Positions 2,283-26,500 of a stretch of DNA of 32,000 bases are shown one piece after another. Numbering within the stretch: the first letter of the stretch is position 1; each line of letters begins with the position of its first letter. Under the pieces are notes generated by a model. It ran no database searches, was not told the origin of the DNA, and was given only the letters and a program-made list of their open reading frames with translations. This DNA comes from Pseudidiomarina andamanensis (GTDB taxonomy: Bacteria; Pseudomonadota; Gammaproteobacteria; Enterobacterales; Alteromonadaceae): assembly GCF_009734345.1 (NCBI RefSeq), contig NZ_CP032551.1:1620001-1652000 (forward strand). The letters run 5' to 3'. Position numbers and translations under genes: made by a program.

Positions 2283-2510
2283 TGCCCTTCATTTTGACTG
2301 AAGGAAATTATTCACTCCTACACAGTGAGAAATTATACAGTTTTTACATGGGAAATGCTCTTTTTCACTGTAGTCTAGAAATTTACATGACTACAAGACA
2401 GAGTTTAAGCTAGCTACACAAATAATAGTAAATACTTCTGATCATAGTTCGTAATATTCTATAGTAATGGGCACAATAAAATAACTACTCCACCAAAATG
2501 GATTTTAAAT

Positions 2511-2576
2511 TTTCACGTAAATTTTTATTTTTTTGTTTACAAACGGAATTTGTTACGTAAAATTTTAACGTAAACT
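2511..2576 (+). promoter_or_regulatory. candidate dnd promoter (TTTACA 2536-2541, N16, TAAAAT 2558-2563) overlapped by three ACGTAAA repeats; possible DndB operator
   Basis: ACGTAAA occurs at 2515-2521, 2555-2561 and 2568-2574. The last two form the near-palindrome TACG-N11-CGTA (2554-2572), which sits over the -10 element immediately upstream of dndB. Confidence 0.35.
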
Positions 2577-2581
2577 TACAG

Positions 2582-3676
2582 ATGGATTTGAAAATGAACC
2601 AGATTGATAACGATTTTTGCTACTCTTTTCCAGCCGTGAGGGGTGTGCAAGCTGGCCGCCCGTTTTATATCGCGACTTGTCCACTTAGAATAATCCCCAA
2701 AATTTTCATCTACGATGAAGAAGAAGTGCCACCAGAATTACGGGCACAACGGACTTTAAATAAAACTAGAATTCCGGAGATGTGTCGATACTTGGTTGAT
2801 AATCCAGATGATTATGTTTTTTCAGCTTTGACGGCCTCAGTAGGAAACGAAGTAACATTCATAGAACATGAAAACGCCCCCAATATGGGCATGCTGCGGG
2901 TATCAATGAATGCTAGTATTTTAATAAATGATGGGCAGCATCGCAGAGCCGCTATCGAGGAAGCTATCAAGCTTCGTCCAGAGCTCGGTCAAGACAATAT
3001 AGCTATTGTTTTTTATATAGATGAAGGCTTGCGAAGAAGTCAGCAAATGTTTGCTGATCTAAACCAGCATGCGATCCGACCATCCACTTCGTTGTCTACT
3101 CTATATGATATGCGTGATCCTGGGGCGCGTATCGCAAAGTATCTTGCAAATAATGCAACTCCATTCGTCGGTTTTACCGAGATGGAAAAAAGCAGTATAC
3201 CGGTTAAAAGCAATAAGATTTTTGCATTGAGCGCTATAAAGCATGCGACACGAGCTCTCCTTCAAAAAGGCCCAAAGGACGAGATCAGTGAAGAGGAAAA
3301 AGCTATGGCTTTGCAGTTTTGGAACGAGATTAATGAAAACATGCCTGAGTGGAAATTAGTACAAGAGAAGAAACTGTCGGTTAGCGAGTTTAGACAAGAA
3401 TATTTAACAGCACACGGTATTGCGCTGCAAGCACTCGCAAATGTAGGTAGCCAGCTTATTCCCTTAGCTGAAAAGGAACGAAAAGCTATATTGACCAAAC
3501 TTCAAAGTATCGACTGGCGACGCTCTAACTATGAATGGATAAAGCGAGCAATGATGCATGGAAAGTTATCCAAAGCCAGTTCCAACATATTCTTGACGTC
3601 ACTGGAGATTAAGCGGCAATTGGGGCTTCAGATTACTGAAGATGAGATCACTAAAGAAACTGAGTTGTTAAAATGA
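2582..3676 (+). CDS. dndB: DndB, DGQHR-domain DNA phosphorothioation regulator
   Basis: 364 aa. Contains LINDGQHRRAAIEEA (DGQHR motif) and QQMFADLNQ, both characteristic of DndB/DGQHR proteins. Its stop overlaps the dndC start (ATGA at 3673-3676). An alternative start at ATG 2594 (MNQIDN...) has a slightly better GGA spacing. Confidence 0.9.
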   Translation: MDLKMNQIDNDFCYSFPAVRGVQAGRPFYIATCPLRIIPKIFIYDEEEVPPELRAQRTLNKTRIPEMCRYLVDNPDDYVFSALTASVGNEVTFIEHENAPNMGMLRVSMNASILINDGQHRRAAIEEAIKLRPELGQDNIAIVFYIDEGLRRSQQMFADLNQHAIRPSTSLSTLYDMRDPGARIAKYLANNATPFVGFTEMEKSSIPVKSNKIFALSAIKHATRALLQKGPKDEISEEEKAMALQFWNEINENMPEWKLVQEKKLSVSEFRQEYLTAHGIALQALANVGSQLIPLAEKERKAILTKLQSIDWRRSNYEWIKRAMMHGKLSKASSNIFLTSLEIKRQLGLQITEDEITKETELLK

Positions 3677-5301
3677 TGACGAATTTTAGTCAATTTGATT
3701 TAGATGAGTACATCGAATTTATCGAGCAAGAAAAATTTGCCGACAAATTGCTGTCGGAACATATCGCAAATGTACAAAGAGTTTACTTACAAGATAAACG
3801 TCCTTGGGTAATTGGATATAGTGGCGGAAAAGATTCTTCTGCGGTAATGGTAATCGTTTATCTAGCTTTACTGGGATTGGAGCCACAACAAAGACATAAA
3901 CACGTATTTGTTGTGGCGTCGGACACATTGGTAGAGACACCTATAGTCGTAAATCACGTAAATAACTCTCTTGATGCTATTCAAAAGGGGGCCCAGCGGG
4001 ACAAATTGCCAATTACGTCCCACAAAGTAGTGCCGAAAACCAATGAAACTTTTTGGGCGAACCTTCTTGGTAAGGGATATCCAGCTCCAACTCGCCAGTT
4101 CCGTTGGTGTACAGAGCGAATGAAAATTGACCCAGTCAGTTCTTTCATAACTGATAAGGTTAGTCAATTTGATGAAGTGATTGTCGTGCTAGGCTCTCGC
4201 TCACAGGAGAGCGCTTCGCGAGCTCAAGTCATAGCTAAGCACAAAATATCTGGTTCAGATTTGGCTAAACACACAACGCTTTCGAATGCTTTTATTTACA
4301 CTCCTATCGACACATGGGGCGTTGATGATGTTTGGAAAATCTTACGTCTCTGCCATTTAGAAACACAAGAGACACCTTACGGAACGAAGAATAAATGGCA
4401 TGACAAGTATGATCTTGAGTGGGAAAACCCGTGGGGTGGGAAGAATCTAATTTTATGGAATCTTTATAAGGACTCCTCGGGACAGGGTGAATGTCCCATG
4501 GTTATTGACGAAACCACTCCCTCATGCGGCAACTCTCGTTTTGGGTGCTGGACTTGCACAGTAGTTACAAAAGACAGAGCTATGGAGAGTCTCGTTCAGA
4601 ATGGCGAAGACTGGATGCTGCCATTGCTAAAATTTAGAAATATTTTATCTCGCAGCACATCACCGAAACTTAAGAAAAAATATCGAAGTCATATAAGACG
4701 TGATGGTCGATTAGCATTCAAAACTCTGCGAGAAGATGGTGATAAAATTTTAACTAATGACTACACAACTGGTCCCTACTTGTTGAAGTACCGGAAGTTG
4801 GCTTTAAAGATTCTTCTTCGGATGCAAAAAAAATTAGCGCTTGTGCAAAAAGACTTGGAACTGATCACAGTACCAGAGCTGCACGCTATTCGGCATGAGT
4901 GGTTAAATGATCCTAACGACCCGGACTGGAACGATGAGTTACCTAAAATTTTTAAAGAAGTATTTGGATATGATCTTGATTGGTCAGTAGATGATACAAA
5001 CCAGTTTACACATCAGGAGTCAGCTCTTCTCGACGAAGTTGCTCCAAATTTTAATGTCTCACCGCAGATGCTGAAAAAATTAATCGATCTAGAAATATCC
5101 ATGAGCGGTTTAACTCGAAGAGTCGGGATTTTTAATAAAATCGGTCGTCTTATTCAACAGGATTGGGGATCCGCCGAGTCTATTATTCTGGAGCACAAAG
5201 ACAATCGTCAGCGTCAGATTAATCAATCTCGGGAAGTTGAACTCCTAACAGAAGAACTAAATATGCTAAACGCTTCAATAGAGAAAGAGACAAAAATATG
5301 A
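3673..5301 (+). CDS. dndC: DndC, PAPS-reductase/PP-loop family sulfurtransferase for DNA phosphorothioation
   Basis: 542 aa. PP-loop GYSGGKDSS, FRWCTERMKI, and a Cys cluster CGNSRFGCWTCT typical of DndC. ATGA overlaps with dndB (3673-3676) and dndD (5298-5301). Confidence 0.93.
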   Translation: MMTNFSQFDLDEYIEFIEQEKFADKLLSEHIANVQRVYLQDKRPWVIGYSGGKDSSAVMVIVYLALLGLEPQQRHKHVFVVASDTLVETPIVVNHVNNSLDAIQKGAQRDKLPITSHKVVPKTNETFWANLLGKGYPAPTRQFRWCTERMKIDPVSSFITDKVSQFDEVIVVLGSRSQESASRAQVIAKHKISGSDLAKHTTLSNAFIYTPIDTWGVDDVWKILRLCHLETQETPYGTKNKWHDKYDLEWENPWGGKNLILWNLYKDSSGQGECPMVIDETTPSCGNSRFGCWTCTVVTKDRAMESLVQNGEDWMLPLLKFRNILSRSTSPKLKKKYRSHIRRDGRLAFKTLREDGDKILTNDYTTGPYLLKYRKLALKILLRMQKKLALVQKDLELITVPELHAIRHEWLNDPNDPDWNDELPKIFKEVFGYDLDWSVDDTNQFTHQESALLDEVAPNFNVSPQMLKKLIDLEISMSGLTRRVGIFNKIGRLIQQDWGSAESIILEHKDNRQRQINQSREVELLTEELNMLNASIEKETKI

Positions 5302-7289
5302 TTTTCAAAACTCTAACATTAAACAATTTTAGGGTTTTTAAGGGGTTACATGACATTGATTTGGCTCCTAAAAAACATGGACTTGTCGGTAAGCCAATAG
5401 TTTTATTTGGTGGATTGAATGGCGCTGGGAAAACGAGCATTTTAACAGCCATTCGACTTATTCTAATGGGACGAAAAGCGTTAGGTACCGCAATTAGCCA
5501 GAAAGAGTACATCAAATTTTTAATCGAACAAATAAACAAAGAAGCTTTAAGTTCGCAGAAAAACGCTAGAGCATCGATTGAGTTAGAGTTCACGCATACT
5601 CACAAAGGAAAGCATAATACTTTTGTAGTGAATAGAGGATGGAACTCAGAAGGAACCGAGTCTCTGAAACTAAAGCTAAATGACGAAATTTTAGACACTC
5701 TAAACATCGAACAAACTCAGGCAATACTCTCAGATCTAGTTCCAACGGGTATTGGGGATCTCTTCTTTTTTGATGGAGAAAAAATTGCAGAGCTTGCGGA
5801 AGATGACACTGGTCACTACTTAAAGGACGCAGTGCAAAAGTTACTCGGTATTGATGTGGTAAATCGCTTGAGAGAAGATTTGGAAATCTACCTTAAACAG
5901 GTAACAAAGGACTCATCGGATAATGAGTCAGTTAAGCAAATAACAGCTCTAGAGGCAGAAAAAGATCTGCTATACCAATTAGCGACGCGTTCCCGCCAAA
6001 AAGCTGAAGAAATTCGTCCACAGTTGTTCGAACTGCGAAAGTTGGCTTCTCACCTTGAAAATAAATTGCAAGAACGGGGCGGCGCCTGGGCCAAAACAAA
6101 AAAAGACGAAAAGGCACGAGCAGATCAATTAATTAGAGATGAACATCAAATAAGTGGCGTCATATTAAATGAGCTCGATGATTACTTCCCATTAGCTTTA
6201 GCACCAAACGCAGTTAAGTCGCTTTTCGAACAATTACACAAAGAAAAATCCAAGAAGCAGGAGAACGGCTTTTTGGAGCAATTGACCAAGTTAGTACCTA
6301 AGTTGTCTCGGGTCCTTGCCAAAGAAATCAACGCTGACGCTGCCAACTTAGAGAAATTAATTCTGGACCATGCAGAGTTATTAAGTTCAAGCCGCCAAGA
6401 TGGGAGCGTTGTTCTCGACATTTCTGACACAGATTTTTATCGTTTACTTAATGGAAATGAAGCATCTCTTAACTCGAAGGCCAAATTAGTCGAAAGCCTA
6501 AGAAAGCTAGAGTTTTCCCAGTCGGAATTAGCATCGCTGTCGACCAACATTTCTCGTGCCCCAGACGAAGAAGAATTGGGAGAGATATTTGCTGAATTAC
6601 GGGAATTAGATAAGAAGATTATTGAAAAACGAGATAATTATCTTGCTCATTTGAAAGAGGCGCAATCTCGAATGATGAAGACGCTCGAGCTTTCTCGACG
6701 TCTTGAAAAATTAATAAGTCAGCAAAAAAATCAAGTAACGATAGTTAAAGCTATTAAGCGCGTAAGCTCTGCACAATCTGCATTAACACAGTTCGCCCGA
6801 CGACTAACAAAGTTACGTGTTAGTCAATTGGAAGAATTATTCGTAATATCTTATCGAAAGCTTGCTAGAAAGGATGAATTGAAGTTAGCAGCAAAAATTA
6901 ACCCTGAAAATTTTGACGTTTCACTCATTGATCAGGATGGTACTGAAATTAATAGAAAATCTCTTTCTGCTGGGGAGAAACAAATTTTCGCATTCGCAAT
7001 TCTCGAGGCTTTAGGAAAATTATCAGGAAAGGTATTACCTCTTGTAGTTGATACCCCGCTTGGACGTTTAGATTCCAAACACCGAGATAAGCTTATAACT
7101 CGTTATTTCCCAGAAGCAAGTGATCAGGTCATTTTGCTGTCTACTGATACGGAAGTCGATAAAGGTTTTTATTCAATGCTTGAAGAGTATGTTTCTCATT
7201 CGTATGAAATTAAATTCGATGGTAAATTGCGAAATTCAAGAATATTTGAAGGATACTTCTGGAAAGATAATTACATGGAGGTCGTGTAA
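5298..7289 (+). CDS. dndD: DndD, SMC/ABC-like ATPase of the phosphorothioation complex
   Basis: 663 aa. Walker A GGLNGAGKTS, a long charged coiled-coil middle, signature-like LSAGEKQIFAFAILEAL, and Walker B/D-loop PLVVDTPLGRLD. Confidence 0.9.
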   Translation: MIFKTLTLNNFRVFKGLHDIDLAPKKHGLVGKPIVLFGGLNGAGKTSILTAIRLILMGRKALGTAISQKEYIKFLIEQINKEALSSQKNARASIELEFTHTHKGKHNTFVVNRGWNSEGTESLKLKLNDEILDTLNIEQTQAILSDLVPTGIGDLFFFDGEKIAELAEDDTGHYLKDAVQKLLGIDVVNRLREDLEIYLKQVTKDSSDNESVKQITALEAEKDLLYQLATRSRQKAEEIRPQLFELRKLASHLENKLQERGGAWAKTKKDEKARADQLIRDEHQISGVILNELDDYFPLALAPNAVKSLFEQLHKEKSKKQENGFLEQLTKLVPKLSRVLAKEINADAANLEKLILDHAELLSSSRQDGSVVLDISDTDFYRLLNGNEASLNSKAKLVESLRKLEFSQSELASLSTNISRAPDEEELGEIFAELRELDKKIIEKRDNYLAHLKEAQSRMMKTLELSRRLEKLISQQKNQVTIVKAIKRVSSAQSALTQFARRLTKLRVSQLEELFVISYRKLARKDELKLAAKINPENFDVSLIDQDGTEINRKSLSAGEKQIFAFAILEALGKLSGKVLPLVVDTPLGRLDSKHRDKLITRYFPEASDQVILLSTDTEVDKGFYSMLEEYVSHSYEIKFDGKLRNSRIFEGYFWKDNYMEVV

Positions 7290-7645
7290 TGTTACCCAAC
7301 AGAATGCAGTTATCGAAGGTGGTCGAAGAACAGTTAAAAAGACTAAAATCGCAAACTGGTATAACTCCGAATATATCGGCACGTATTGCCTTTTTTAAGT
7401 CAATTGAAAGTGGATATAGGTTTGATCCTAGCATCAGTTACAAACTAGATGGTACGTTGACTTTAGATAAGGTCACCTGGTTAGGAAAAACTCAGCAAAT
7501 CACTGAACTGCTACTACGATTAAACTACCAAGAGTTAGATGAAAAGCATTTGCAAGTAGCTTGGGCTGCTCATGTAGAACATGGAATTTCCTCGCTGAGA
7601 AATCAAAAGACGTTAGCTGATTTTTGTCAAAGTATACTTCTATGA
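7289..7645 (+). CDS. dndE: DndE, small DNA-binding phosphorothioation protein
   Basis: 118 aa. Its start shares one base with the dndD stop (TAATG). N-terminus LSKVVEEQLKRLKSQTGITPNISARIAFFKSIE. Size and position (last gene after dndD) are as in characterised dnd loci. Confidence 0.8.
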   Translation: MLPNRMQLSKVVEEQLKRLKSQTGITPNISARIAFFKSIESGYRFDPSISYKLDGTLTLDKVTWLGKTQQITELLLRLNYQELDEKHLQVAWAAHVEHGISSLRNQKTLADFCQSILL

Positions 7646-7665
7646 TGGAGTTCTTTAGTTCTAAC

Positions 7666-7707
7666 AATGCCGAGCTAGAAAATTCGCTCGGCATTATTAT
7701 TTTATTT
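7666..7707 (+). terminator. rho-independent terminator after dndE, shared by the convergent operon
   Basis: Perfect 10-bp stem AATGCCGAGC (7666-7675) / GCTCGGCATT (7686-7695) with a 10-nt loop, followed by ATTATTTTATTT. It is the only structure in the 56 nt between the two converging stop codons (7645 and 7702). There is no T-run on the minus-strand side. Confidence 0.6.
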
Positions 7708-8157
7708 AGCCCAACTGAAAGGGTTTAGGTTTGTATCATTATTCAGCTCGTCATTTAATTCCGAATTTATCAATAGCTCAATCGACTGAAGTGCATTCGT
7801 ACCATCTTTGATATATTCAGAAATGACTGACAGTCCACCATTGGCATATTCTTCAAAAATAAGAATAGCATTGGAGAAATGTTCTTTCTTCAATATGTTT
7901 GTATCCTTAGTTTCAGCTAGCGCTAGACAATGAATGAAAGGAATATCAATATTTTCATCGAATATTCTTAACATTATACGTTCACCACTTTTATCGAAAG
8001 GTAAGCGTATTTGCTTTTTATAGCCTAATGAAGCTGCAAAAACTAAGATATTCTTGAAAGAAGAAAAAATATTTTCATCTTTCAATATAGTTAATAGTTT
8101 ACTATGCTCTTCTGGGCGACGAACTCTAATATCTTCTCTTTTCTCGTTATTAGGCAT
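7702..8157 (-). CDS. 151-aa protein, last gene of the dnd-linked operon (possibly the small dnd-associated / PbeA-like protein)
   Basis: Its ATG 8157 overlaps the upstream ATPase stop by 8 nt (AAATGCCTAA). Sequence ...NILVFAASLGYKKQIRLPF...FIHCLALAETKD...LIFEEYANGGLSVI.... No catalytic motif recognised. The family assignment is from memory of dnd-neighbourhood annotations and is unverified. Confidence 0.7.
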   Translation of the reverse strand: MPNNEKREDIRVRRPEEHSKLLTILKDENIFSSFKNILVFAASLGYKKQIRLPFDKSGERIMLRIFDENIDIPFIHCLALAETKDTNILKKEHFSNAILIFEEYANGGLSVISEYIKDGTNALQSIELLINSELNDELNNDTNLNPFSWAK

Positions 8158-10213
8158 TTATTTTTACCTCATCTATAGACGAGTAATCAAATCCAGTATC
8201 AGAAGCAGCTAAGTAACCTCGTTCCGTTAGCTTATTGTCTTTAATAGATGACGTGTGATAAACCAGCTTGTAGGACTTACCAATACGGCCTTCACAAGCC
8301 TGTTTCACATTGCCTGACCATTGCGAGTTAGAAACAAAAATAATAACTTGATCTGCTAGATTAGAAACACTTTGTGCAACTTTAAATCTATAGTCATCGT
8401 CCAAAGCCCCAAAAGGTGAGTCCATAACTAAAGGATATATGCCTCCTGTAAAAAAGTTTGTGTTCTTTTTATTAATCTGCTCTTTAGCTAATTCAATTAT
8501 GCTTGCAATAAATGATAGGCTGGTAACCTGCTTCTCGCCAGTCGATTGTTCTCTAGCTTCCTGTGTTGCCCCGTCTATATCTGTTTTAACTACCTTTAAA
8601 TGATAGTTTTCATCAATAATAGCTTCTACAGGCTTTCGCATAATTGCTTGGAACGTTCTGTTGACTCTTTGAGACAAGTCTAAACGTATGCGATCTGTTA
8701 AAAACTCATTAAGAGAATTTAATGCATTAGCAACGTTTTGTGCGGCAGTGTATCTTGCTGAAGTCAAAGTGTGTTTCTCTTTCTTGTCTTCCAGCTCTTC
8801 AAACTGCTCTTTTCTTTCCTTTAAACTTGCTTCAATAGTTTCGAGCTCAATATCGTGCCGAGCCAGTTCTTTTTCTAAATTAATCGCTTGTTTGTTTAAG
8901 TCATTAATATCATTTTCTAATTTCGCAATCTGGTCATCATCTTGACCCATTTCTCGAAGTTTTAAATTAATTTCTGTGATTTCATCTTGGATGCTTTCGA
9001 TCTTTAACAAGCGTTCATTATATCGATTTGTGAAAACTTCGTGTTTTTGTTTATAAGTATCATTATCGCTATCGAAATGACTAATCAAAGCTTGCAGCCG
9101 AGTAAAGACCTCCTCCGCATCATCGCTTCCAGCGTCTTTCAGAGCGTCTTGCAATGTATTTTCTTCAATAGAGTTAGGTCTTATAGGATTTCCGCACATA
9201 CAGTAACCTGACTCAATGAGGTCTTTGATAAATTGATCTCGAACCCTATACGGTAGGCGCCCGATCTTTCTATTTTCTTCAATTATTTGCTTGGAGTCAT
9301 TAATTACTTTTGAAGACAATATTGAGGCTCGATATGCGTCAATCGTGCTCGCGCGATCTGAGTTTATCTCGTCCATTTCCTTTTTAAGGTCACGAATGTT
9401 GCGGTTCAAAGCTTCTCGTTTATCAGCTAACGATTTTGCTTTTTCAATTTTTTTTAACTCGTTATTCTTCCCGTCGATGGATTCGCGAGTCGAAGCTAAA
9501 ATTTGTTTAGTTGACCGAATCGAATCCGAAATGCGTGTTTTCTCGTCTTCTTTAAGGTTTATTTCGTCATATATGTCTTGATGAAGCTCCGACTTAAAGT
9601 CCTTTCCTTCTTTTCGAATTTGACGTGCGGCTTTCTGGACATGTTTGTGAGCTCTTTCTATTAGCTCTAGGCCAGTTAAATATCGAATAGCTTGCTTTAT
9701 CTTGTCACCTTCATTCACATTTGCGATTTTTTCTATACGTTCACCATTGAAAAAGAAATATGGCTGAAGATTTCTTGGTATAAGCAACTCAATTGTGGAG
9801 CCTGGCATTTTTGAGCGCACCGTCTTCCCTGATTCGTCAGTAACATCGACAGAAAAATCAGATTCCTTTAACGAAACGGTACCGTCTGAACGCTTTAGAT
9901 ACTTGTTTTTTCTTGTTATATCGTATCGATTGCCAACATCAGAACACTTTATTTGTACCGAAGTAGTAATTAAATCTCCTGCATTTGCATTAGTAATGGC
10001 AGCTTCATTGAGAATGAAGTCATTTTCGGTGTCAAAGTCGGTTTGACCATAAAAACACCATTTAAAAGCGTTAAGCAGACTAGTTTTTCCTGCGCCGTTT
10101 GCTCCATGAATTACGGTTACGTTTTTGTCGTTGCTTGTTGCAAAGTCCAAAATTATTGGCTTCCAAAACTGCCGGAAGTTTTCAATCCGCATTGAATCAA
10201 TTTTCATTAACAA
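8150..10213 (-). CDS. DndD-like SMC/ABC (RecF/Rad50-type) ATPase with long coiled coil
   Basis: Track ORF is 687 aa from TTG 10213. The likely start is ATG 10207 (MKIDSMRIENF...), which overlaps the micro-ORF stop by 11 nt. Walker A HGANGAGKTS, a coiled-coil middle of about 350 aa, signature-like STGEKQVTSLSFIASI, and Walker B YPLVMDSPFGALDDD (compare DndD PLVVDTPLGRLD). A CMCG motif lies mid-coil. Confidence 0.9.
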   Translation of the reverse strand: MLMKIDSMRIENFRQFWKPIILDFATSNDKNVTVIHGANGAGKTSLLNAFKWCFYGQTDFDTENDFILNEAAITNANAGDLITTSVQIKCSDVGNRYDITRKNKYLKRSDGTVSLKESDFSVDVTDESGKTVRSKMPGSTIELLIPRNLQPYFFFNGERIEKIANVNEGDKIKQAIRYLTGLELIERAHKHVQKAARQIRKEGKDFKSELHQDIYDEINLKEDEKTRISDSIRSTKQILASTRESIDGKNNELKKIEKAKSLADKREALNRNIRDLKKEMDEINSDRASTIDAYRASILSSKVINDSKQIIEENRKIGRLPYRVRDQFIKDLIESGYCMCGNPIRPNSIEENTLQDALKDAGSDDAEEVFTRLQALISHFDSDNDTYKQKHEVFTNRYNERLLKIESIQDEITEINLKLREMGQDDDQIAKLENDINDLNKQAINLEKELARHDIELETIEASLKERKEQFEELEDKKEKHTLTSARYTAAQNVANALNSLNEFLTDRIRLDLSQRVNRTFQAIMRKPVEAIIDENYHLKVVKTDIDGATQEAREQSTGEKQVTSLSFIASIIELAKEQINKKNTNFFTGGIYPLVMDSPFGALDDDYRFKVAQSVSNLADQVIIFVSNSQWSGNVKQACEGRIGKSYKLVYHTSSIKDNKLTERGYLAASDTGFDYSSIDEVKINA

Positions 10214-10397
10214 TACCCCGGTTTATGCACGCGACTATTGTATTTACTATACTGTCATACTTGTTCTCATTCTTTTCTAATTCAGCATCAGCTAAACTTT
10301 GCTTTTCTAGTGCAAGAACTTCACGAAAAATTCTTTGTTCTGCTGGGGTAAGACTTTGAATAATTTCATCAACGCTATTCATCAAAATGTACTCCAT
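10197..10397 (-). CDS. micro-ORF (61-66 aa), acidic helical protein, translationally coupled between the helicase and the ATPase
   Basis: It exactly fills the only gap in an otherwise overlapping operon. Start is ATG 10397 (23-nt overlap with the helicase) or ATG 10382 (ATGAATAG overlap). Its stop TGA 10199..10197 lies inside the ATPase start region. No motif recognised. Confidence 0.55.
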   Translation of the reverse strand: MEYILMNSVDEIIQSLTPAEQRIFREVLALEKQSLADAELEKNENKYDSIVNTIVACINRGIVNEN

Positions 10398-12420
10398 GTC
10401 GTTTGGCTAGGTCCAATAGCATGTCTTCATTATCCTTAGCATTTATAGCTAATGAGTTGTACTCCAGCCCTCTAAAAACCTCACGAGAAACTAGTTCAGG
10501 GCTAATTGCTGCATGTTTAGGCGGAATAACAATAAAGTCAAATATTGCAGCTTGTGTCTTTCCTTGTGCTTTTCGAAGTACACGCCCCCGACGCTGTATA
10601 AACTCTCTGGGATTCGTGGTTGACGAGAGAATAAAAGCATTTTGGGTGGCAGGTACATCTACCCCCTCGTCTAGACACTTTATCGCTGCTATAACTTCCA
10701 GTTCACCGGAGGCGAATAAGCTCAGTATTTCTTGTCTATCTTCAAGTGACTCAGATGCTGTAAATTTACGAGCTTTCAGTCTAAGTTCCTTTCCAACTAA
10801 CTTTAAAACTTTGTCTATATGGCGCAACCCGTCACTGTCACGATGTGTTCCGCAATAAATTAACGTATGAGTTTTTGACTCCATACGCTGAATTTCTTGT
10901 GACAACAGGTCAAGTTTGCTTTCAACCATCGATATTAGTTCATTTCTCTGTCTTAATAATTTTTCATGCAGCTGAGTACGAGGTTGGCCTGGCCGTCTGT
11001 TTTTTTTCTGCTCCTCAATATCATCACTAAGCTCCTGATAGAGATAAAACTCCTGTTCCGTCATTTCACAGAGAAGCGGTGTGTAACTATAAGGAACCAA
11101 GAAACTTTTTTGAATTGCATCTGCCAATGAAAACTCATAAACACTTTTACCAAAGTAATTGAAAAGTGATTCGGTACCTTCATCGTCATTATGCCTTACA
11201 GGAGTCGCGCTTAACGCTAGTCGAAAATTCGCATTATCTGGCAACTTAGACGAGAAAGTCGGAGCCCCAAGATTATGCGCTTCGTCTGCGATAATTAGAA
11301 AATCTCCAGTAATCGGTTTGATCAAAGCCTGAAAGTAATCCGAAATAAAAGTACTGTTCGTAACCATAGCCATGACAATACCTTCGCGCTTGGCTGAAGT
11401 AGTAACTAAAGCATCAGCAAGCTTACTACGCCATGCGTCTGAACTTTCATAACATTTTATTGGAGAGTATCCGAAGTTACTTGCTTCATCAAACCATTGA
11501 TCTAAAAGGTGCTTCAGCGGAAGGATAAAGCACACAAATAACTTGCGCTTTGCCGGCAATGTGCGTTGTTTGATAAGCTTTTGAACTATCGATAATGCTG
11601 TAATAGTTTTACCTGAGCCGGTTGCCATTACCAAAAAGCCTTTACCGCTAGCTTGACCCCATGCTTCTATCGCTTCAATTTGATAGTCACGAAGTGTTAT
11701 ATGAGATGCGGTTTGGGTTATTTCACTCTGCAGTTTTTCCAAGCTACTAGCTTTCTCCGAAATTTGTGATATCAGGTTCAAAGAGGGTGTGAGGACTTTG
11801 TAACTTGGATCTATATTCTTCCATAAGTTTTCAAAACGTTCACAATTGATATTGATTCGACGTTTTTCAGTTGAAACCCAGCTCTTGAAAACATCGATGT
11901 GCTCCCAGTTAGACTTGGCGTTACCAGTTAAGTTGTAAGAGCCTGTGAATGCAATTCTGTTCTCAAAAAAATCTGTTGCATTCCCTATCTTCGCATGGAA
12001 CATTCCGGAGGATGTAATCTTAGGTAACGCTATTTTGAACTCTAAAACTCCATATCTGATCAATGTGGCGAGGCGTGTTTGTAGTGGTTTATCTAACTCT
12101 AAAAACTCGCTTATAATCCGATCGTCTAGTAATTTCTTTGTAACGCCACTGTCTTCTTCAGCTTTCACGGTGCTTATGACTTCAGCATCTTCTTTTTGAA
12201 GTTGTGGTGAAATTACCCATCTGCTCTTACCGTTATTTGATGCGAACATTAAAATTGCTTCGCATACATCTCGTAACCAAGCGGATGAAAAATATCCTAC
12301 AGCAACATCAAATGTTTTAGCATTCGAAAGTAAAGGAACAAACAACTCTTCGTTTGGATCTGAATACCCAGACGATAAAGTCTCAGGAAGATCAATTTCA
12401 GAAAATTGTTTAGAAGTCAC
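10375..12420 (-). CDS. PLD(HKD)-family nuclease domain fused to an SF2 DEAH-box (type III Res-like) helicase; candidate PT-dependent restriction enzyme
   Basis: 681 aa with a GTG start at 12420. N-terminal HKD-like motif GMFHAKIGNATD...GSYNLTGNA (His codon at 11997..11995). Helicase motifs DYQIEAIEAW, MATGSGKT (I), IIADEAHNLG (II), LALSATP (III), IKCLDEGVDVP (V) and FIQRRGRVLR (VI). Confidence 0.9.
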   Translation of the reverse strand: MTSKQFSEIDLPETLSSGYSDPNEELFVPLLSNAKTFDVAVGYFSSAWLRDVCEAILMFASNNGKSRWVISPQLQKEDAEVISTVKAEEDSGVTKKLLDDRIISEFLELDKPLQTRLATLIRYGVLEFKIALPKITSSGMFHAKIGNATDFFENRIAFTGSYNLTGNAKSNWEHIDVFKSWVSTEKRRININCERFENLWKNIDPSYKVLTPSLNLISQISEKASSLEKLQSEITQTASHITLRDYQIEAIEAWGQASGKGFLVMATGSGKTITALSIVQKLIKQRTLPAKRKLFVCFILPLKHLLDQWFDEASNFGYSPIKCYESSDAWRSKLADALVTTSAKREGIVMAMVTNSTFISDYFQALIKPITGDFLIIADEAHNLGAPTFSSKLPDNANFRLALSATPVRHNDDEGTESLFNYFGKSVYEFSLADAIQKSFLVPYSYTPLLCEMTEQEFYLYQELSDDIEEQKKNRRPGQPRTQLHEKLLRQRNELISMVESKLDLLSQEIQRMESKTHTLIYCGTHRDSDGLRHIDKVLKLVGKELRLKARKFTASESLEDRQEILSLFASGELEVIAAIKCLDEGVDVPATQNAFILSSTTNPREFIQRRGRVLRKAQGKTQAAIFDFIVIPPKHAAISPELVSREVFRGLEYNSLAINAKDNEDMLLDLAKRHGVHFDE

Positions 12421-13201
12421 TGAAGTCGTCCAATAATTTGTCTAATGAATCATCGACTTCGAACTCAATAATATCGCTATTTGTCAATCTACTTTTGGCC
12501 CCAGCAATAGCTATATTTTTATGCTTGGCGAGTGCTTTTAAATCTCTAACAACTTTTTTTGTCGGTATTTCTGCAGATCTGTAAAGTTCTCGTAGAATCT
12601 GTACTTCATTCTTTGCGATTTCGGCATCTGATATTGCAATATCTTTAGCAATAGTCACGATCTGCAACTTCGCCACGCTGTTGAGACTCTCTATTTCCTC
12701 AATTAAATCTTCAATGCTATAACGGCTAAAAAGCCAGTAGAGGGCCCTCATAAGAACGAAGTCTTTCTCTGAGCTGGTTAGAAAAGTCAAACCTCGGATT
12801 GAATCTCGAACTTGCTGAAGCTCCTGATATTTTATAGAGCCATCTATCTTAGCCATCATCGCAGAAACTTTTGCGATGAGGAGCGCATATCGCATGTTCG
12901 AGGATGTTTTATCTACAGCGGGTTGCTTGTGAAAAATGACTACAGGCTCATGAAGAAGTTCGCGACTGAGGTTGGCGACAGTAATTCCGGAGCTCGTTTT
13001 TACTAACTTAGGAAGAATATCTAACTGTTCCTCAATTAAAGTTTCATATATCAACTCCAAGGAAATTTGACGAGTTACATCAAGTTTAGAAAATTCTTCT
13101 ATATTTGCGATCGTGCCTAGGAAGTATCCTTCGGTATCTATATTACGCCGAACCTTGTCCAAGTTGTAGACTTCTTCATAACCAATAACATTAGTGTTCA
13201 T
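12410..13201 (-). CDS. TerB-like domain protein, first gene of the operon
   Basis: 263 aa. Its stop TAA 12412..12410 overlaps the helicase GTG start by 11 nt. The C-terminal half shows the paired TerB-type helices LLIAKVSAMMAKIDGSIKYQELQQVRDSI and VTIAKDIAISDAEIAKNEVQILRELY, followed by an acidic tail DDSLDKLLDDFSDF. The domain call is by pattern only. Confidence 0.7.
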   Translation of the reverse strand: MNTNVIGYEEVYNLDKVRRNIDTEGYFLGTIANIEEFSKLDVTRQISLELIYETLIEEQLDILPKLVKTSSGITVANLSRELLHEPVVIFHKQPAVDKTSSNMRYALLIAKVSAMMAKIDGSIKYQELQQVRDSIRGLTFLTSSEKDFVLMRALYWLFSRYSIEDLIEEIESLNSVAKLQIVTIAKDIAISDAEIAKNEVQILRELYRSAEIPTKKVVRDLKALAKHKNIAIAGAKSRLTNSDIIEFEVDDSLDKLLDDFSDF

Positions 13202-13394
13202 TCCGTTGCCCCACTTATTAAATGATAGTTTTGAAACAAGCTTTATTTTTGATGATATGAAATTAACTCATTTATAACTGAGAGACAATACGAATAACTA
13301 CTGTTAAAAATCGGGGGACTAGACTAGTAATTAAGATTTATTCAATTACTTTTCGATTAGTTAGGCTAGTTAACAAAGTAAGTTCAACTGCATT

Positions 13395-13429
13395 GAAACG
13401 AAAACGCCCTCATCGATGAAGACGTTTTA
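13395..13429 (-). terminator. rho-independent terminator of yicC
   Basis: The minus strand reads AAAACGTCTTCATCGATGAGGGCGTTTTCGTTTC. The stem is CGTCTTCA/TGAGGGCG (two G-U pairs) around a TCGA loop, followed by TTTTCGTTTC, about 25 nt after the yicC stop. Confidence 0.55.
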
Positions 13430-13452
13430 GGAATCAAAATAAATGAAATTAG

Positions 13453-14316
13453 CTACTCGATGTTCTGGATCTGCTCACGCATCTGCTCAATCAACACCTT
13501 CAACTCCACAGCAGAAGCAGTAATGTCAGCGTTAATCGATTTCGAGCCCAAGGTGTTCGCTTCACGGTTGAATTCTTGCATCATGAAGTCTAAACGACGG
13601 CCACAGGCGCCGCCTTTACGCAGAATTTTGCGGGTTTCAACAACGTGCGCGTTCAGGCGGTCGAGCTCTTCGGCTACGTCTACTTTTTGCGCCAGCATCA
13701 CCATTTCCGCTTCAAGGCGCGTTGGGTCGAGTTCCACACGAGCTTCTTCAAAGCGCGCAAGCAATTTCTCACGCTGCCATTGCAGTACTTCTGGCATGCG
13801 GCCGCGCACAAAGCTGACTTGCTCTGAAATGCCTTCAAGGCGCTCTTCAATCATGCGCTCGAGTGCCTTGCCTTCGCTAGCACGGTTTTCAATAAATTCA
13901 GCAATGCAGGCTTCAAAAGCGCCAAGTACGTCGGCTTGAATCACATCCATATCGTCTTCTTGCTGCGCCACAACACCAGGCCAACGCAATACGTCTAACG
14001 GGTTCAGCTGTGCACTTGAGCTTTGGTTGGCTACCCAATTCGCCGATGAAATGACGCTACGAGCGAGGTCTTCGTTCAGACTTAAACCGCCTTCGGCTTT
14101 TTGCTCAATGTGCAAACGCAGGTTGCATTCTACTTTGCCGCGCTGCAGTTGCTTGCGTAAGCGGTCGCGTAAGCCATTTTCGAGTGAACGAATTTGCTCG
14201 GGTAGGCGAAAGTAGGTTTCTAAGAAGCGTTGGTTTACCGAGCGCATTTCCCACGTGGCTGTGCCCCACTCGGCTTTCAGTTCATGGCGCGCGTAGCCGG
14301 TCATTGATTGAATCAT
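13453..14316 (-). CDS. yicC: YicC-family stress-induced protein
   Basis: 287 aa. MIQSMTGYARHELKAEWGTATWEMRSVNQRFLETYFRLPEQ is near-identical in pattern to E. coli YicC. The gene is divergent from rph, as in enterobacteria. Confidence 0.93.
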   Translation of the reverse strand: MIQSMTGYARHELKAEWGTATWEMRSVNQRFLETYFRLPEQIRSLENGLRDRLRKQLQRGKVECNLRLHIEQKAEGGLSLNEDLARSVISSANWVANQSSSAQLNPLDVLRWPGVVAQQEDDMDVIQADVLGAFEACIAEFIENRASEGKALERMIEERLEGISEQVSFVRGRMPEVLQWQREKLLARFEEARVELDPTRLEAEMVMLAQKVDVAEELDRLNAHVVETRKILRKGGACGRRLDFMMQEFNREANTLGSKSINADITASAVELKVLIEQMREQIQNIE

Positions 14317-19629: not shown

Positions 19630-20530
19630 CAACCCGCACGAAAACTATGCGTATTGGGTAAAAATTGCGACACGTGCGTCAGTTTCTGTCGCATTCATAT
19701 TAATTGCGGTAAAAATAGCGGCGTGGTTGATAACCGATTCCAGCAGTATGTTGGCGTCGTTAACCGATTCTCTACTCGATAGTCTCGCCAGCTTGTTCAC
19801 ATTTTTCGCGGTGCGTTATGCGGTGCAACCAGCCGACAATGAGCACCGGTTTGGGCACGGTAAAGCCGAATCGTTAGCGGCGTTGGTGCAGTCTGCGTTG
19901 ATTACCGGGTCGGCCATGCTGCTATTGATTCACAGTGTTCAGCAGTGGGTTCAAGGTACGCCTGTACAGCAAGCTGAAATTGGTGTGTATGTGTCGGTAT
20001 TCGCAATTGCATTAACGCTTGCGCTAGTGGTGTTGCAGCGGGTGGCAATTAAGAAAACTGGCTCTCAGGCAATTGCAGCCGATGCACTTCACTTTTCATC
20101 TGACTTATTACTCAACAGTGCGGTTATTGTGGCGCTTATTTTAAGTGCTTACGGGTGGCTGTGGGCCGATAGCGTTTTTGCCATCATCATTGCAGTATTT
20201 TTAGCGCAAGGGGCGGTACGTATAGGCTGGGATGCGTTTCAGTCACTGATGGATCGCGAGCTTCCTAGTGACGAAAAACAGCTAATTATCGATACTATTA
20301 AAGGCATTCAAGGCGTGCACGGTATTCACGGTTTAAAAACCCGCTCAGCTGGCCCAACCCGTTTTGTGCAAGCCCATATTGAGCTCGACGATAACCTAAA
20401 CTTGCGCCAAGCCCACGATATTGCCGATAAGGCCGAACTGGCTGTTGCCAACCTGTTCGACCATACCGACGTGATTATTCACATGGACCCGTTATCGGTT
20501 GTTCCGGCGAAGGTTGACGGAGCGACGTAA
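19619..20530 (+). CDS. fieF: cation diffusion facilitator family Fe/Zn efflux transporter
   Basis: Colinear with E. coli FieF: [59 protein letters not shown] prefer ATG 19619 (AAGGG 8 nt upstream, 11-nt overlap with trmL) over the track start at 19589. Confidence 0.88.
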
Positions 20531-23500
20531 CGCCGCTCCCATCAAGCCCATCAACAATAACCACCAAGTCATTTGACCTGAAGATGATTGTGGTGCAGCC
20601 GGTTCATGCGGCACATTTACCTGTACTCGCAAGATACCTGAAGCCGTTGCCCCGCGATTATCTGTTACCACGTACACAACAGTTACTGCGCCTGTGATAC
20701 CCGTAGCTGGCGTTACGGTTACGGTGCCGCCTTCGAATGCAACGGTTCCCCCAGTACTTGAGGTGATTTCAGCTGATGCTACGGTTAGCGTGTCACCATC
20801 GGCGTCAATGTCATTGGCAACTACGTCGACGCTCACCGGCTTATTAACCACTGTACTCACCGTATCAACTGTCGTTTCTGGTGCACGGTTCGCTAATATC
20901 GTCACCGCAACAGAGGCTGTCGCAACACCACCGCGTCCATCATCAATGGCATAGGTGACCGTTGCCGTTCCGGCGTAGTTTGTTGGGGCATCGTAATGCA
21001 GTGCCGCGCCGTCGTTGATAACAGTTACTGTGCCGATATCTGCGTGCGCCGACGTAATCACGAGTGAATCGTCATCAGCATCAATGTCGTTGGCTAGTAC
21101 ATCAATTTCAGCATCCCCTTGCCAAATGACTGTCACCGAATCTGCCGTAGCTTCTGGCGTGGTATTGTCAGTTGCTGCAACACTTAGTGCACCCGGATCA
21201 ACAATCACACCGTTAGCCATACCATCTGCGTCGTTCGCACCACCATCTTCAAGCAGTAACTGCACACACCAGTGACCAGCTGTTAAACCGGCCTGCCACT
21301 GCGACGAGCCTAGTGCTGGACAAACGCCTGGTTCACCAGCAGCACTGAAGATCTGGTTGTTTTCGTCTTGCACAAAATCTTGCCATGCACCACCAATGTG
21401 CTTCCGATACAGGGCATTGGTTGGAATTGGTTGTGATAATGGCAGAACGATACGGCTGGTGCCGCCTAGCTCAGAGAGATCAAAGATTTCAAAATCAAAG
21501 GCCGAACCCATTCGGGTATGGTTTGTATCGACATCTAAATCTTCTGACACACTGATATGCGTGTTGAATTGACGCATGCCTAGCTCACCGAGTCGCAAAC
21601 ACGCACTCATTGAACCTTGAGCGAAGTGAATGTTACCCGCTTGTGCAGAACGTGCGGCTATCAGTTGGCAACTACGGCTTGGGTTTAGATAATTTGGCAT
21701 GCCCTGACCTAAGTCGTCATTGGTGCCATCATACATATCTGGTAAGCCATCGCCATCCGCATCGGTATCTGAACCCAGCGTAGGGTGAGCATCAACAGCA
21801 TTCAAAATTACACTCGCATAGCCACGCAGGCCTGCTGCGTCGGTTACTGTGACTCGAACGGTTGCCGCGGTATTCGCCGCAATTAACAGTGGGTCAATCA
21901 CATAGCGAGTGCCACCATCGGTTGCGCCGCCGGCAACTGGGCTTTGCCAATTGTAGGTGAGCGTATCACCGGCATTCGCATCGGTTGCCGTTGCCACTAA
22001 CTCGATCAAACCACCACTGCGAAGCACGGTAGTGCGCTTCTGGCCGTCTTGTGAGTAAGCGACGCTAACTTGCGGAGCCATGTTGGCAGCGCTACTGGTT
22101 ACCGAAACCTCTGCAACTTCGCCTAGGTTCATGCTATCTGCGAGCGCCACAACAATGGTATTGCCTGCAGCTGGAGCGGTAACACTGATGGTGCCTTGTG
22201 TGCCTTGCTCAAGCTCAAGCGAACTCGCGACACCATCAATGGTGTAGTTGATGACAAATGGGTAGCTTGGCGCCAGACCATTCAACATCACCGACAAGTT
22301 CACTGAGGCGCCAGCCGCTGTTGTTACGTTGCGTGCTAGCGATACCATCGGCACCACTTCAATGCGCTGACCAAGCACGGTACGCTCGCCATCTGCATTA
22401 GTCGCTTGCCACATCACTTCGTGTACACCTGGCGCGAATACTGGCGCCCGTTGCTCAACTAAACTGACTGGCAACGGCTGACCGTTTGCATCTGTCGCTG
22501 AAGCTTCGCCGAGCTCGACACGAGTGAGTGCGCCGGTTGCAGGAACAACAAGGTCATCAGGTACCACAAGATTGATGGCGCCAGAGCCAGTGATTGTCAC
22601 TTCAGCCGTGGCGGAGTCACGCCCACCCATACCATCGTCAACACTGTAGTTCACGCTGACTTTGCCGGTATATTGCGCATCAATTGTTAGCTGAACTTGA
22701 TTCGAAGCAATACTGACTGAACCGACACTTGCCGATGCTTCAACAAGTGTAAGCGAGTCTTCATTAATGTCGGTATCATTCGCTAATACGTCCAGTAAAT
22801 ACACGCCATCGTTATTGCGTGGCAGACTGAAAGTATCATCGTTTGCTACCGGCGGCTCTTGACTGTACGTCACTTCAATAGTGAACATCGGCAAACTTAC
22901 ACTAACAGTTCCGTCATTCACGCTAAGCGAAATATCAACCCAAACCGCAATGTCTTCCATTGCTGGCGTGCCACTCAACGTACCGGTTGCTGTATCGATA
23001 GTTAACCAAGTCGGTAAGTTTTCTGCACTGAATGTCAGCACGTCGTTATCGATATCTTCAACTGTTGGGGTGAAACTATAGGCTTCGTCCACTTCGGCAA
23101 ATGACGCTGGTGTGCCAGTAATGGTTGGCACATCATTAACGTTGGTAACTTCAATTGCGAACGCAGGAAGGTCGGCGGTTAACGTGCCATCACTCACCGT
23201 GATCACAATATTACTGTGAACGCCTACATCGTCATTGGTTGGCGTACCCGTCAGCGCACCGGTTGAGCTATTGAAACTCGCCCACGTTGGTGTGCCGGTA
23301 ATGCTAAAGCTAAGTGAGTCGCCATCAACATCAGATGCTGTCGGCGTAAAGCTATAGGCTGCATCTTGCGCAACGGTTGTTGCAGGCGTACCGCTAATCA
23401 CTGGTGCATCGTTCACGTTCGTTACTTCAATACTAAACGCTGGTAGCGATGCACTGAGTTCGCCATCGCTCACCGTGATAGTGAGACCAGCTGTACTACC

Positions 23501-26500
23501 CAAGTGATCTTGGGTTGGTGTTCCTGACAACGTTCCCGTACTGGTGCTAAACGTTGCCCAGACTGGTTTGTTCACAATGCTATAAGTAAACGAGTTGCTA
23601 TCAATATCGTTCACCGTCGGCGTGAAGCTATAGGCGGCATCCTGGGCAACTGTTGTCGCTGGGCTACCGCTTATAGTTGGCGCATCATTCACGTTCACCA
23701 CGGTGATGGTAAAGCTTGGTAAGCTTGCGCTTAATTCGCCGTCGCTCACACTGATGGTGATTGCTGCACTTGTGCCAACATGATCATTCGTTGGCGTGCC
23801 GGTTAGCGTACCCGTTACCGCACTGAAACTTGCCCATGCCGGCATGCCACTGATGCTGTAAGTGAAGCTAGTGCTATCAACGTCTGCCACTGCTGGCGTA
23901 AACGAATAAACACTGTCTTCGTTCACAGACGTTGATGGCGTGCCACTAATCGTCGGCGCATCATTCACGTTCACCACGGTAATCGAGAATGGCGCAAGTG
24001 AAGCACTTAAGGTGCCATCACTTACTGAGATGGTAACGCCTGACGCTGTACCCACATGATCATTAGTTGGAACGCCTGCCAAAGTGCCTGTAGTTGGGTT
24101 AAACGTTGCCCAAACCGGCTTATTGGCAATACTGAAGATTAGCGAATCGCCCACATCAACATCACTCGCCGATGGGGTAAAGCTATAGGGTGTATCCTCG
24201 TTTACTGACGTTACTGGGGTACCAATAATGGTTGGTGCATCATTCACGTTCACCACGGTGATAGAAAACGCTGCCAACGCGCTTCCTAGCTGACCATCAC
24301 TAACACTTATTTGAACGTTGCTATGAACACCAACATCGCTATTGCCTGGTGTACCTGCCAGTGCGCCAGTTAAAGTATTGAAACTTGCCCATGCTGGCTT
24401 GTTGGTGATGCTGAATGACAAGCTGTCGCCATCAATATCAAGCGCCGCTGGGGTGAACGAATAGAGACTATCTTGATCAACCGACGTTGCCGGTGCACCG
24501 TTGATTGTTGGTGCATCGTTGACGTTTTCAACGGTAATCGAAAACGCAGTTAACGTATCACTGAGCCCGCCATCTGACACCGAAATTTGAATGTTGCTAT
24601 GCACACCCACATCGGCATTCGTTGGCGTTCCGCTTAATGTTCCGGTGTTTGTGTCGAAGCTTGCCCAAGTTGGTGCGTTTAGTACCGCATACGTCAACGA
24701 ATCGCCATCGATATCATTGGCGGTTGGTGTGAAGCTGTACAACGCATCTTGTAACACCGTCGTCGCCGGCGAACCGCTGATTGTTGGTGCGTCATTAACG
24801 TTCACTACTTCAAGGTTAAAGGCCGGTAACGAAACTTGGTTGTCAGCATCAGCCACCGTAATCACGATGTTTTCTGTGACTCCCACATGTGCCTGTTGCG
24901 GTGTTCCAGAAAGCTCACCGGTGGTCGTCGAAAACGATGCCCATACTGGCTTATTGACGATACTGAAGGTCAGTGCATCATTTTCAGCGTCGGTAACCGT
25001 TGGTGTGAAGCTGTAGGTACTACCCTGCAACACGGATGTGCTTGGTGTGCCCGTAATAACTGGCGCGTCGTTGAGGTTGAGATAATAAACTTCTCGACCG
25101 AACTCCGGTAAGTTTGCGGTGAAGAAGTAGGTTTCGCCAACAGCTAATGACGTTGAATAGTTGCCGATATAATCGCCATCTTCGGCGCTCGTTAACTGAG
25201 TGATTTCGCCCGTTTCAAAACTGTATGAGTAGATATCTTCTTGCCAAGAGCTATTTGAAGAGCGCACATAGGCATATATATAAACCTGCGTATCTGTCGC
25301 TGTCATCATGCCATATGAAGTGGTGAGTGCGCCGGGTGATAAATCAGCAATTAATGACACCGAGTCACTAGCAAATTCATATTTAAAGAACTCATAGCCG
25401 GTTTCAGCAGTATAGGCATGCATCAGAATGCCATCACTGACCGGAGCGATGTATGACGATACTTGGAAATTTGTAGCTGGTGTTACAGCGACTGTGCTTT
25501 CAGTATTCGGGTTGTATTGAAAGAGTTGCCAATTGCTTGCGCCGTTGTATGCAGAAAAGTAGAGATTGCCATCGGTACCTTCCACAAAAAATCTTGGATT
25601 GCTTGAACTCCCGCCAGCGAAAATATCCGCCGCCAACTCAATGGCATTGGTTGTATGATTAATTCGGAAAAGCTCCCATCCATAGGTTGATGAGTAAACA
25701 CGAAAATAGAGATCGCCATTAAAACTTAGCAACTCCTCAAATTGACTAGTTAAATCGATACCGCCATAAACATCATTTACTTTTGCTAAAGAGTCAGTGG
25801 CTGGATCATAAACTGCTTGATACCAACTTGGATTGGCTGGGTCGACAGTCCCAAGGAAATAAATCTTGCCATTGGATTCAACAAGATTTCTCGCTGCTGA
25901 AAGACCGCCATTATCTGGCAATGCTAGATATTCGCGAATATCATTGGTCGTAGGGTTATAGGCAAATAGTTTACTACCGCCAATATCTGCGCTACCTGCT
26001 GCAAATATTAACTCACCATTGAGTTCTACCATCGTTGTGCTGTAGTTGAACGCGTTAGTTCCAACAACAATTTCTTGGTTCGGGGAAGTAAGAACTTTGG
26101 TTTCTGGGTTATACCGGAATAGTTCTATGCCAAACTCGTCGGTACTTGCAAAGAAATAAAGCTCCCCATTCATTTTATGCAATGCATTGGTAACAGAGCT
26201 GTTGCTCACCGAAACTGTCCCACCTACAGTTTGAACAGTGTTCGTTGCGACATCAAAACGAACCAAATCATGCTGTGGAAGCTCCTGCGTGCCGGCCCGC
26301 ATGTAAAGCACATCACCAACAACGATAAAACTGTCTGGACTACCTGAGACTGTTCCAGGGTAAATATCAGCAGCTAAAGAACTTGTAAGATTAGAGGGAT
26401 TGATACGATGTAATTCATAGCCATGCTCGTTGCTGTACGCGCGATAATAAACAGAGCCGTTGTAACTATTATAATGATACGGATTGGGATTTGTTGAGGC

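Follow-up and report, generated by a model that had tools for sequence, protein, structure and literature searches.

What is a TerB-domain protein doing at the head of an operon of DNA-defense genes? The question arises from a 32,000-nucleotide (nt) stretch of the Pseudidiomarina andamanensis chromosome (contig NZ_CP032551.1, positions 1,620,001 to 1,652,000; hereafter, the window), in which the lead gene of a five-gene operon on the minus strand encodes a TerB-domain protein of 263 amino acids (aa) that we call ORF263 (positions 12410 to 13201 of the window, ATG start). The gene behind it encodes PbeA, a fused nuclease-helicase, and the phosphorothioate modification genes dndBCDE lie in the same genomic island. 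The bare TerB assignment is already public, because the ORF263 product is an exact match to the P. andamanensis chromosomal protein WP_156267640.1, whose NCBI annotation reads “TerB family tellurite resistance protein.” From the comparisons described below, ORF263 looks like something more particular: an undescribed fifth subunit, dedicated and co-inherited, that belongs to a rare PbeABCD subtype and is encoded here beside dndBCDE.

A HMMER scan over 1.84 billion representative proteins (threshold, E < 1e-3) gave 54 matches to the ORF263 family. About 46 of these (clusters at 50% identity) have the same architecture; they range from 94 to 401 aa, fragments included, and are mostly 250 to 280 aa long. 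The remaining matches are much longer or carry a TerB_C domain. A genome-collection scan with the single ORF263 protein returned no matches, and neither did tblastn against plasmids and phages. Genomic context was available for 11 loci (the window, L001, L002, L004, L007, L008, L009, L010, L093, L094, and L095), whose family members are 20 to 90% identical to the window protein. In all 11, the TerB gene lies directly upstream of a PbeA homolog on the same strand, with a spacing of −11 to +6 nt. The full five-gene order was found in the window, L001, L002, L004, L009, and L010, and the small open reading frame (ORF), PbeC, and PbeD come after PbeA wherever the contig is long enough. Genes for dndBCDE occur near the linked loci in variable orientation (convergent, divergent, or separated by other defense genes), and the outer flanks vary among the loci.

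An earlier note, made from the sequence of the window alone, had placed the gene at the head of its operon, overlapping the PLD-helicase gene by 11 nt and tightly coupled to it, and this arrangement was confirmed. The TAA stop of ORF263 occupies positions 12412 to 12410, and the GTG start of the 681-aa PbeA gene is at 12420; the same 11-nt overlap is present in the related loci L001 and L002. The GTG start is backed by an alignment of PbeA homologs, whose N termini align from that start. One family member, encoded in L093 (618 to 1823, plus strand; P0038), is 401 aa long and has an extra N-terminal segment of about 135 to 200 aa without a Pfam match; it is still directly upstream of PbeA.

The PbeA proteins that accompany the family form their own cluster. 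Seven full-length linked PbeAs share 39 to 67% mutual identity, versus 31 to 41% identity to 76 unlinked PbeAs, and the nearest neighbors of each linked PbeA are other linked PbeAs. Pairwise identities among the TerB proteins follow those among their PbeAs (r = 0.90; the pairs are not independent), a correlation that indicates co-inheritance and nothing more. The TerB gene was absent from all 80 of the other PbeA loci examined in a metagenome scan and from two unlinked genome loci, even at E ≤ 10. In PbeA loci without the TerB gene, PbeA is mostly preceded by dndA. Together, the linkage in 11 of 11 loci, the separate PbeA cluster, and the absence from other PbeA loci show that the ORF263 gene accompanies a single, rare PbeA clade as a conserved add-on and is no chance neighbor.

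Other PbeA clades have also acquired lead genes, which encode HARE-HTH (L035, 4318 to 4998, plus strand), Sigma70_r4 (L019), and HNH (L063) proteins. The L035 locus encodes PbeABCD without a TerB gene, and its HARE-HTH gene is directly upstream of PbeA. PbeA C termini are clade specific (L013 to L037 and L039 to L092): in one clade the conserved ending is ‘...DVIWDxAxxYGLMDF’, and the gut-metagenome clade has very acidic tails that include aromatic residues (for example, EIEIDDENQEDDDYV). Neither type of ending occurs in the TerB-linked clade. Similarly, the PbeB-like proteins of the TerB-linked clade (window, L001, L002, L004, and L010) end in ‘...(R/V)(N/D)E(N/D)’, that is, NEN, DEN, or DED, and those of the gut clade end in ‘...EEEVxCY’, so that the C-terminal signature of PbeB is clade specific even though this protein has been described as rapidly evolving.

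The ORF263 protein itself belongs to the TerB family, as the earlier note had recognized. Pfam TerB (PF05099) matches residues 109 to 215 (E, 3.5e-7; 31 bits against a gathering cutoff of 24.4), and it is matched by all 42 sequences of the family alignment (best E, 1.1e-11). The note had also described two TerB-type helix pairs in the C-terminal half, and the motifs it quoted, AKIDGSIKYQE and ISDAEIAKNE, do contain the residue pairs D120/E127 and D192/E199. Of these four residues, three (D120, E127, and E199) do not vary across the 42 sequences, and D192 is near-invariant (at least 90%). Among the observations that it named as telling against its reading were the lack of a TerB profile match and homologs that never adjoin the PLD-helicase; when these two were checked, TerB matched, and the gene was adjacent to PbeA in 11 of 11 loci. 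No PADLOC or NCBIfam model matches the ORF263 protein.

An AlphaFold2 model of ORF263 built on the 42-sequence alignment (predicted local distance difference test [pLDDT], 87.3; predicted template modeling score [pTM], 0.83) consists of an alpha/beta domain (residues 12 to 91), a helical bundle (residues 101 to 227), a disordered linker (residues 236 to 250, approximately), and a short terminal helix. The bundle (positions 12521 to 12901, minus strand), supported by the Pfam match, the invariant columns, and a structural match, carries the duplicated D-G...E motif (D120/E127 and D192/E199) plus Y207. It matches the TerB-like crystal structure PDB 2h5n (PG1108) by profile (E, 6.6e-7) and by Foldseek (probability, 1.0; target-normalized TM, 0.56 to 0.64); the match to Klebsiella TerB (2jxu) is marginal (E, 0.04). 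ORF263 shares with the TerB of terZABCDE operons and with 2h5n the Pfam family, the duplicated acidic motif, and the helical-bundle fold. It differs from ter-operon TerB in having an extra N-terminal domain and a tail, no ter operon, and a defense context.

The N-terminal 100 or so residues were left unassigned in the earlier note. This was correct insofar as they have no match in Pfam, NCBIfam, or PADLOC, but the isolated N-terminal alpha/beta domain (residues 12 to 91; positions 12929 to 13168, minus strand; P64 invariant) models confidently (pLDDT, 87). It is homologous to a segment without annotation in SngA, the TerB protein of the Shango defense system, where this segment comes before the TerB domain. 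A Foldseek search of the isolated domain against the PDB found no match (best E, 0.57). A winged helix, which the order of secondary-structure elements had suggested, was dropped as a candidate fold on the basis of the same search (TM ≤ 0.35).

Experiments have shown that Shango, in which the TerB protein SngA is joined by an ATPase and a DEAD/DEAH helicase, confers protection against phages (PMC10250203; bioRxiv 10.1101/2022.05.11.491447), and the view in the earlier note that the association of TerB proteins with helicases in defense is essentially untested is therefore out of date. The weak out-group matches in our protein-library scan turned out to be Shango SngA proteins (PADLOC SngA E values of 1e-30 to 5e-114), which contain TerB_C in 7 of the 7 scanned and TerB_N in 5 of the 7, in addition to TerB. 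When the ORF263 family was aligned to these SngA proteins with hhalign, residues 14 to 226 were matched over 207 columns (probability, 99.6; E, 1.3e-24). The SngA segment in question lies between TerB_N and TerB_C, and the alignment takes in the N-terminal domain as well as the TerB bundle.

Because this core aligns and the flanking modules are absent, ORF263 is, by these comparisons, a truncated “mini-SngA,” consisting of the central alpha/beta domain and the TerB bundle, without TerB_N or TerB_C and with a tail of its own where SngA has TerB_C. The earlier note had brought in TerB-N/TerB-C modules, which are not supported for ORF263, since neither TerB_N (PF13208) nor TerB_C (PF15615) is matched by any of the 42 family members. 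Like SngA, ORF263 is encoded by the lead gene of an operon with genes for an SF2 helicase and an ATPase. The two proteins differ in length (500 to 850 aa for SngA and 263 aa for ORF263), in the absence from ORF263 of TerB_N, TerB_C, and a match to the SngA model, in the acidic tail, which does not match SngA, and in their partners, which for SngA are SngB (ATPase) and SngC (helicase) and for ORF263 are the PbeABCD proteins, an HKD nuclease and a DndE-like protein among them. The PADLOC SngA model does not match ORF263 at E ≤ 1 and matches none of the 42 members at E ≤ 0.01, and PbeA matches the PADLOC SngC model only at an E of 3.4e-5, over helicase residues 241 to 311. On present comparisons, then, ORF263 is homologous to SngA, yet it is not SngA by the features that define it (domains, model match, and partners).

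TerB proteins are also employed by Bunzi and Dionysus (bioRxiv 10.1101/2025.09.30.679545). Like ORF263, BnzA and DinB bring a TerB domain into a multigene antiphage system; in those systems it is paired with transmembrane or pore-forming effectors, whereas here it is paired with a DNA nuclease-helicase. We set BnzA and DinB apart from the ORF263 family by description, the sole sequence evidence being the lack of a PADLOC match.

Beyond the bundle, ORF263 ends in a linker (residues 228 to 246) and an acidic amphipathic tail (residues 247 to 263, FEVDDSLDKLLDDFSDF-COOH; linker and tail together at positions 12413 to 12520, minus strand), features supported by the model and by column counts. The pLDDT of the model falls below 50 at residues 236 to 250, and a short helix follows at residues 252 to 256. 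The acidic tail had been pointed out in the earlier note, and it proved to be conserved: over the final 20 positions, the 42 homologs have on average 7.3 acidic residues and 0.4 basic ones. The consensus is E-phi-[DE]-D-phi-L-x-x-L-L-x-[DE]-F-x-x-F-COOH (phi, hydrophobic residue), and tail positions such as L253 (37/42), L256 (32/42), D/E259 (39/42), and F260 (36/42) are conserved as strongly as the TerB motif residues. Among 8,481 ORF segments from all fetched loci, a HMMER profile of the tail scored family members only.

Several candidate relatives of the tail were considered and rejected. The tail is not a remnant of TerB_C, as it has no profile match to SngA. A docking tail common to other lead proteins was suggested by hhalign, which aligned the C terminus of the L035 HARE-HTH protein (DDLLDLLFADYEDGR) with an E of 0.062; this match is probably due to chance, because the HMMER tail profile missed it among the same ORF segments, and the homologs of the L035 protein and the lead protein of L019 are without such a tail. 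The PbeA C terminus ‘...GLMDF’ of another clade was also discarded as an analog, since it aligns with the ordinary C-terminal end of linked PbeAs. We observed in addition that the PbeD of L009 (12984 to 13415, plus strand) has a C-terminal sequence, ‘IDDVLGIFDDW’, similar to the tail of the TerB family; the PbeD of the window ends differently, in ‘NLNPFSWAK’.

The operon downstream of ORF263 had been treated in the earlier note as an unknown nuclease system. By profile matches, gene order, and size, it is the known PbeABCD, or CxC-ABC-DndE, module, which was described by Xiong et al. in 2019 (PMC6459918) and recast by the Aravind group in 2024 as a CxC ABC-ATPase/DndE-anchored system (PMC10853773). 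PbeA (681 aa; positions 10375 to 12420, minus strand; PADLOC PbeA E, 4e-204) is a fusion of an HKD (PLD) nuclease with an SF2 helicase and has the Pfam domains PLDc_2, ResIII, and Helicase_C. Its HKD motif is intact, H142, K144, D150, G160, S161, and N163 being invariant in the homolog alignment. The next gene encodes a PbeB-like small protein of 66 aa (positions 10197 to 10397, minus strand) that has no profile match in Pfam, PADLOC, or NCBIfam and whose position and size fit PbeB (PMC6459918, PMC10853773). It is followed by PbeC, a CxC-type ABC ATPase (687 aa; positions 8150 to 10213, minus strand; PADLOC PbeC E, 1.2e-204), in which the C-x-C motif is present as C-M-C within ESGYCMCGNP. The last gene encodes PbeD, a DndE-like “DNA phosphorothioation-associated protein 4” (151 aa; positions 7702 to 8157, minus strand), which scores 104.6 bits against NCBIfam TIGR04062 (cutoff, 74.25).

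As in the published system, PbeA, PbeB, PbeC, and PbeD occur in canonical order beside dnd modification genes. The published system consists of four genes with optional methylases or MTaX1 proteins, whereas here a fifth gene leads the operon, and it does so in only one PbeA clade. We found no TerB- or SngA-like component of PbeABCD in PADLOC v2, in NCBIfam r20, or in open-access literature joining TerB, phosphorothioate, and helicase. Neither PMC6459918 nor PMC10853773 uses the word “TerB” in its main text, and one supplementary file of the latter does not mention it either.

The five-gene operon is convergent with dndBCDE (positions 2582 to 7645, plus strand), whose products were identified by Pfam and PADLOC (E values of 1e-130 for DndB, 2e-259 for DndC, 2e-226 for DndD, and 2e-50 for DndE). 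With both sets of genes identified, the phosphorothioate-linked defense-island setting put forward in the earlier note is borne out. The island spans about 11 kb (approximately 2300 to 13450 in the window) and has a G+C content of 0.35 to 0.42, against about 0.50 in the flanks. It is bordered on one side by a LysR-type regulator gene (1401 to 2282) and on the other by a 287-aa ORF (13453 to 14316), beyond which lie rph- and pyrE-like ORFs, named by reading their translations. Flanking direct repeats were looked for, and none were found; the island also contains no integrase. Since dndA is absent from the island, the cysteine desulfurase for dnd must come from elsewhere, probably IscS. The TerB gene is preceded by an AT-rich intergenic region of 251 nt (13202 to 13452, minus strand; identified from the sequence and the G+C profile), which forms the right edge of the low-G+C island and presumably holds the operon promoter. 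A scan of this region for a sigma-70 consensus gave no match, and a terminator scan found none inside the five-gene operon.

Some of the related loci contain further defense-type genes. In L001, a ScoMcrA-like sulfur-binding-domain/HNH gene adjoins dndB (11271 to 11295). In L004 (6031 to 9645) and L005, the Pbe genes are separated from the Dnd genes by an HATPase_c_3 gene and an AIPR gene, and L009 (1 to 2551) carries a GmrSD_N gene and an ABC-ATPase gene. Elsewhere in the window, and unrelated to the defense island, a gene at 20492 to 27472 (minus strand) encodes a secreted-looking protein of 2,326 aa with many tandem repeats of about 100 aa (‘NVNDAPTI(S/T)GTPxTSVxEDxxYSFTP...’), which resembles a giant adhesin with cadherin-like or VCBS-like repeats.

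How might a fifth subunit act? We consider it reasonably probable, taking the account as a whole, that ORF263 is a fifth Pbe component of the mini-SngA type that docks on the Pbe machinery as a sensor or regulatory subunit; judging from sequence and context, such a role is likely. In this proposal, ORF263 and PbeA would be made together through translational coupling, and ORF263 would bind the Pbe machinery. Its most likely partner would be the PbeA helicase-nuclease, because of the start/stop coupling of the two genes and because a TerB protein, an SF2 helicase, and an ATPase recur as a trio in Shango (PMC10250203). The tail may be a peptide that docks on the partner or occludes a groove in it. 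Phosphorothioate status would be scanned along the DNA by PbeC and PbeD, PbeA would be the effector, and the timing of PbeA action could be set by ORF263 as a sensor or gate. In the archaeal (Haloterrigena) system, none of the four pbe genes can be spared for defense (PMC6459918). We speculate that the TerB bundle, with its four conserved acidic residues, reads a signal, which might be a metal, a small ligand, or a membrane-proximal state.

A number of points weigh against this proposal. The census of PbeA loci is a sample, covering 80 of at least 592 matches plus 3 genome matches. The partner of the tail could be PbeA, PbeC, PbeD, or a host protein, and the basic positions specific to the linked PbeA clade (K303, K322, K537, and R551) are leads for a docking site rather than evidence of one. 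We know of no ligand or metal established for any TerB domain. Both “membrane surveillance” and metal or ligand binding have been proposed for TerB defense proteins (bioRxiv 10.1101/2022.05.11.491447; 10.1101/2025.09.30.679545); the more recent report calls the mechanism of SngA and BnzA still unclear and offers membrane surveillance for DinB as a suggestion only. The model of ORF263 has no transmembrane helix or lipid-binding domain and so gives the membrane surveillance idea no direct support. The canonical PbeABCD system functions without any TerB protein (PMC6459918), which is why we describe ORF263 as an add-on, and its role could be modulatory rather than essential. Phosphorothioate-dependent antiphage activity has been demonstrated only for the Haloterrigena system (PMC6459918). 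The mode of action of PbeABCD is disputed, as Xiong et al. saw no DNA cleavage (PMC6459918) and the Aravind group predicts it (PMC10853773).

Other readings of the same data need to be considered. ORF263 might be an immunity or antitoxin-like inhibitor, whose acidic tail mimics DNA in the groove of PbeA or PbeD and keeps the nuclease off host DNA until infection displaces or destroys the inhibitor. The composition of the C terminus (an aromatic final residue and about 7 acidic ones among the last 20), the basic positions of the linked PbeA clade, and the faster evolution of the ORF263 family relative to PbeA (18 to 63% versus 39 to 67% pairwise identity) are all compatible with such a role, and a negative-regulator function has already been proposed by the Aravind group for the small PbeB protein (PMC10853773). 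PbeB, however, is kept in every linked locus, where a second inhibitor is not obviously needed, and a conserved, folded, two-domain body with invariant TerB acidic residues exceeds what a plain inhibitor would require; we regard this reading as unlikely. It is very unlikely, in our estimation, that ORF263 is a localization factor that associates reversibly with the inner membrane, like Escherichia coli TerB, and holds the Pbe complex close to where phage DNA enters. TerB has been reported to be membrane associated, and proposals of membrane surveillance exist for Shango, Bunzi, and Dionysus, but the modeled structure offers ORF263 no obvious means of membrane attachment, and the SngA parts that it has lost, TerB_N and TerB_C, may be the very ones needed for such a role.

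The public annotation invites another reading, in which ORF263 neighbors the operon by chance and either is an ordinary TerB protein of tellurite or stress resistance or regulates dnd modification. There are no ter genes in the window, the gene is linked to PbeA in 11 of 11 loci with start/stop coupling while its orientation to the dnd genes varies, and the linked PbeAs form their own clade with correlated identities. The linkage data come close to excluding an unrelated stress protein, and we attach hardly any credence to this possibility. A bolder extension of the sensor proposal, which we consider quite unlikely, is that the SngA-core/TerB module serves as a portable sensor of infection, was transplanted from Shango onto a phosphorothioate-linked nuclease-helicase system, and plugs into it through a short acidic C-terminal peptide. 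Were this true, a modification-reading, restriction-like module would have become gated by a second, TerB-sensed signal, and TerB defense proteins in general would control SF2 helicases directly.

The earlier note had anticipated a new functional context for TerB. The novelty is narrower than that, since the wider link between TerB proteins and helicases is known from Shango; what is new is that a truncated, SngA-like TerB protein appears as the conserved fifth gene of a PbeABCD subtype. PADLOC v2 and NCBIfam r20 models miss this conserved component, and because the family appears to be part of the Pbe machinery, the annotation “tellurite resistance protein” is misleading for its members. With its confidently folding TerB core and its candidate docking peptide, ORF263 is a “minimal SngA” tied strictly to one partner operon, and it could offer a small, tractable entry to two mechanisms, those of TerB defense proteins and of PbeABCD.

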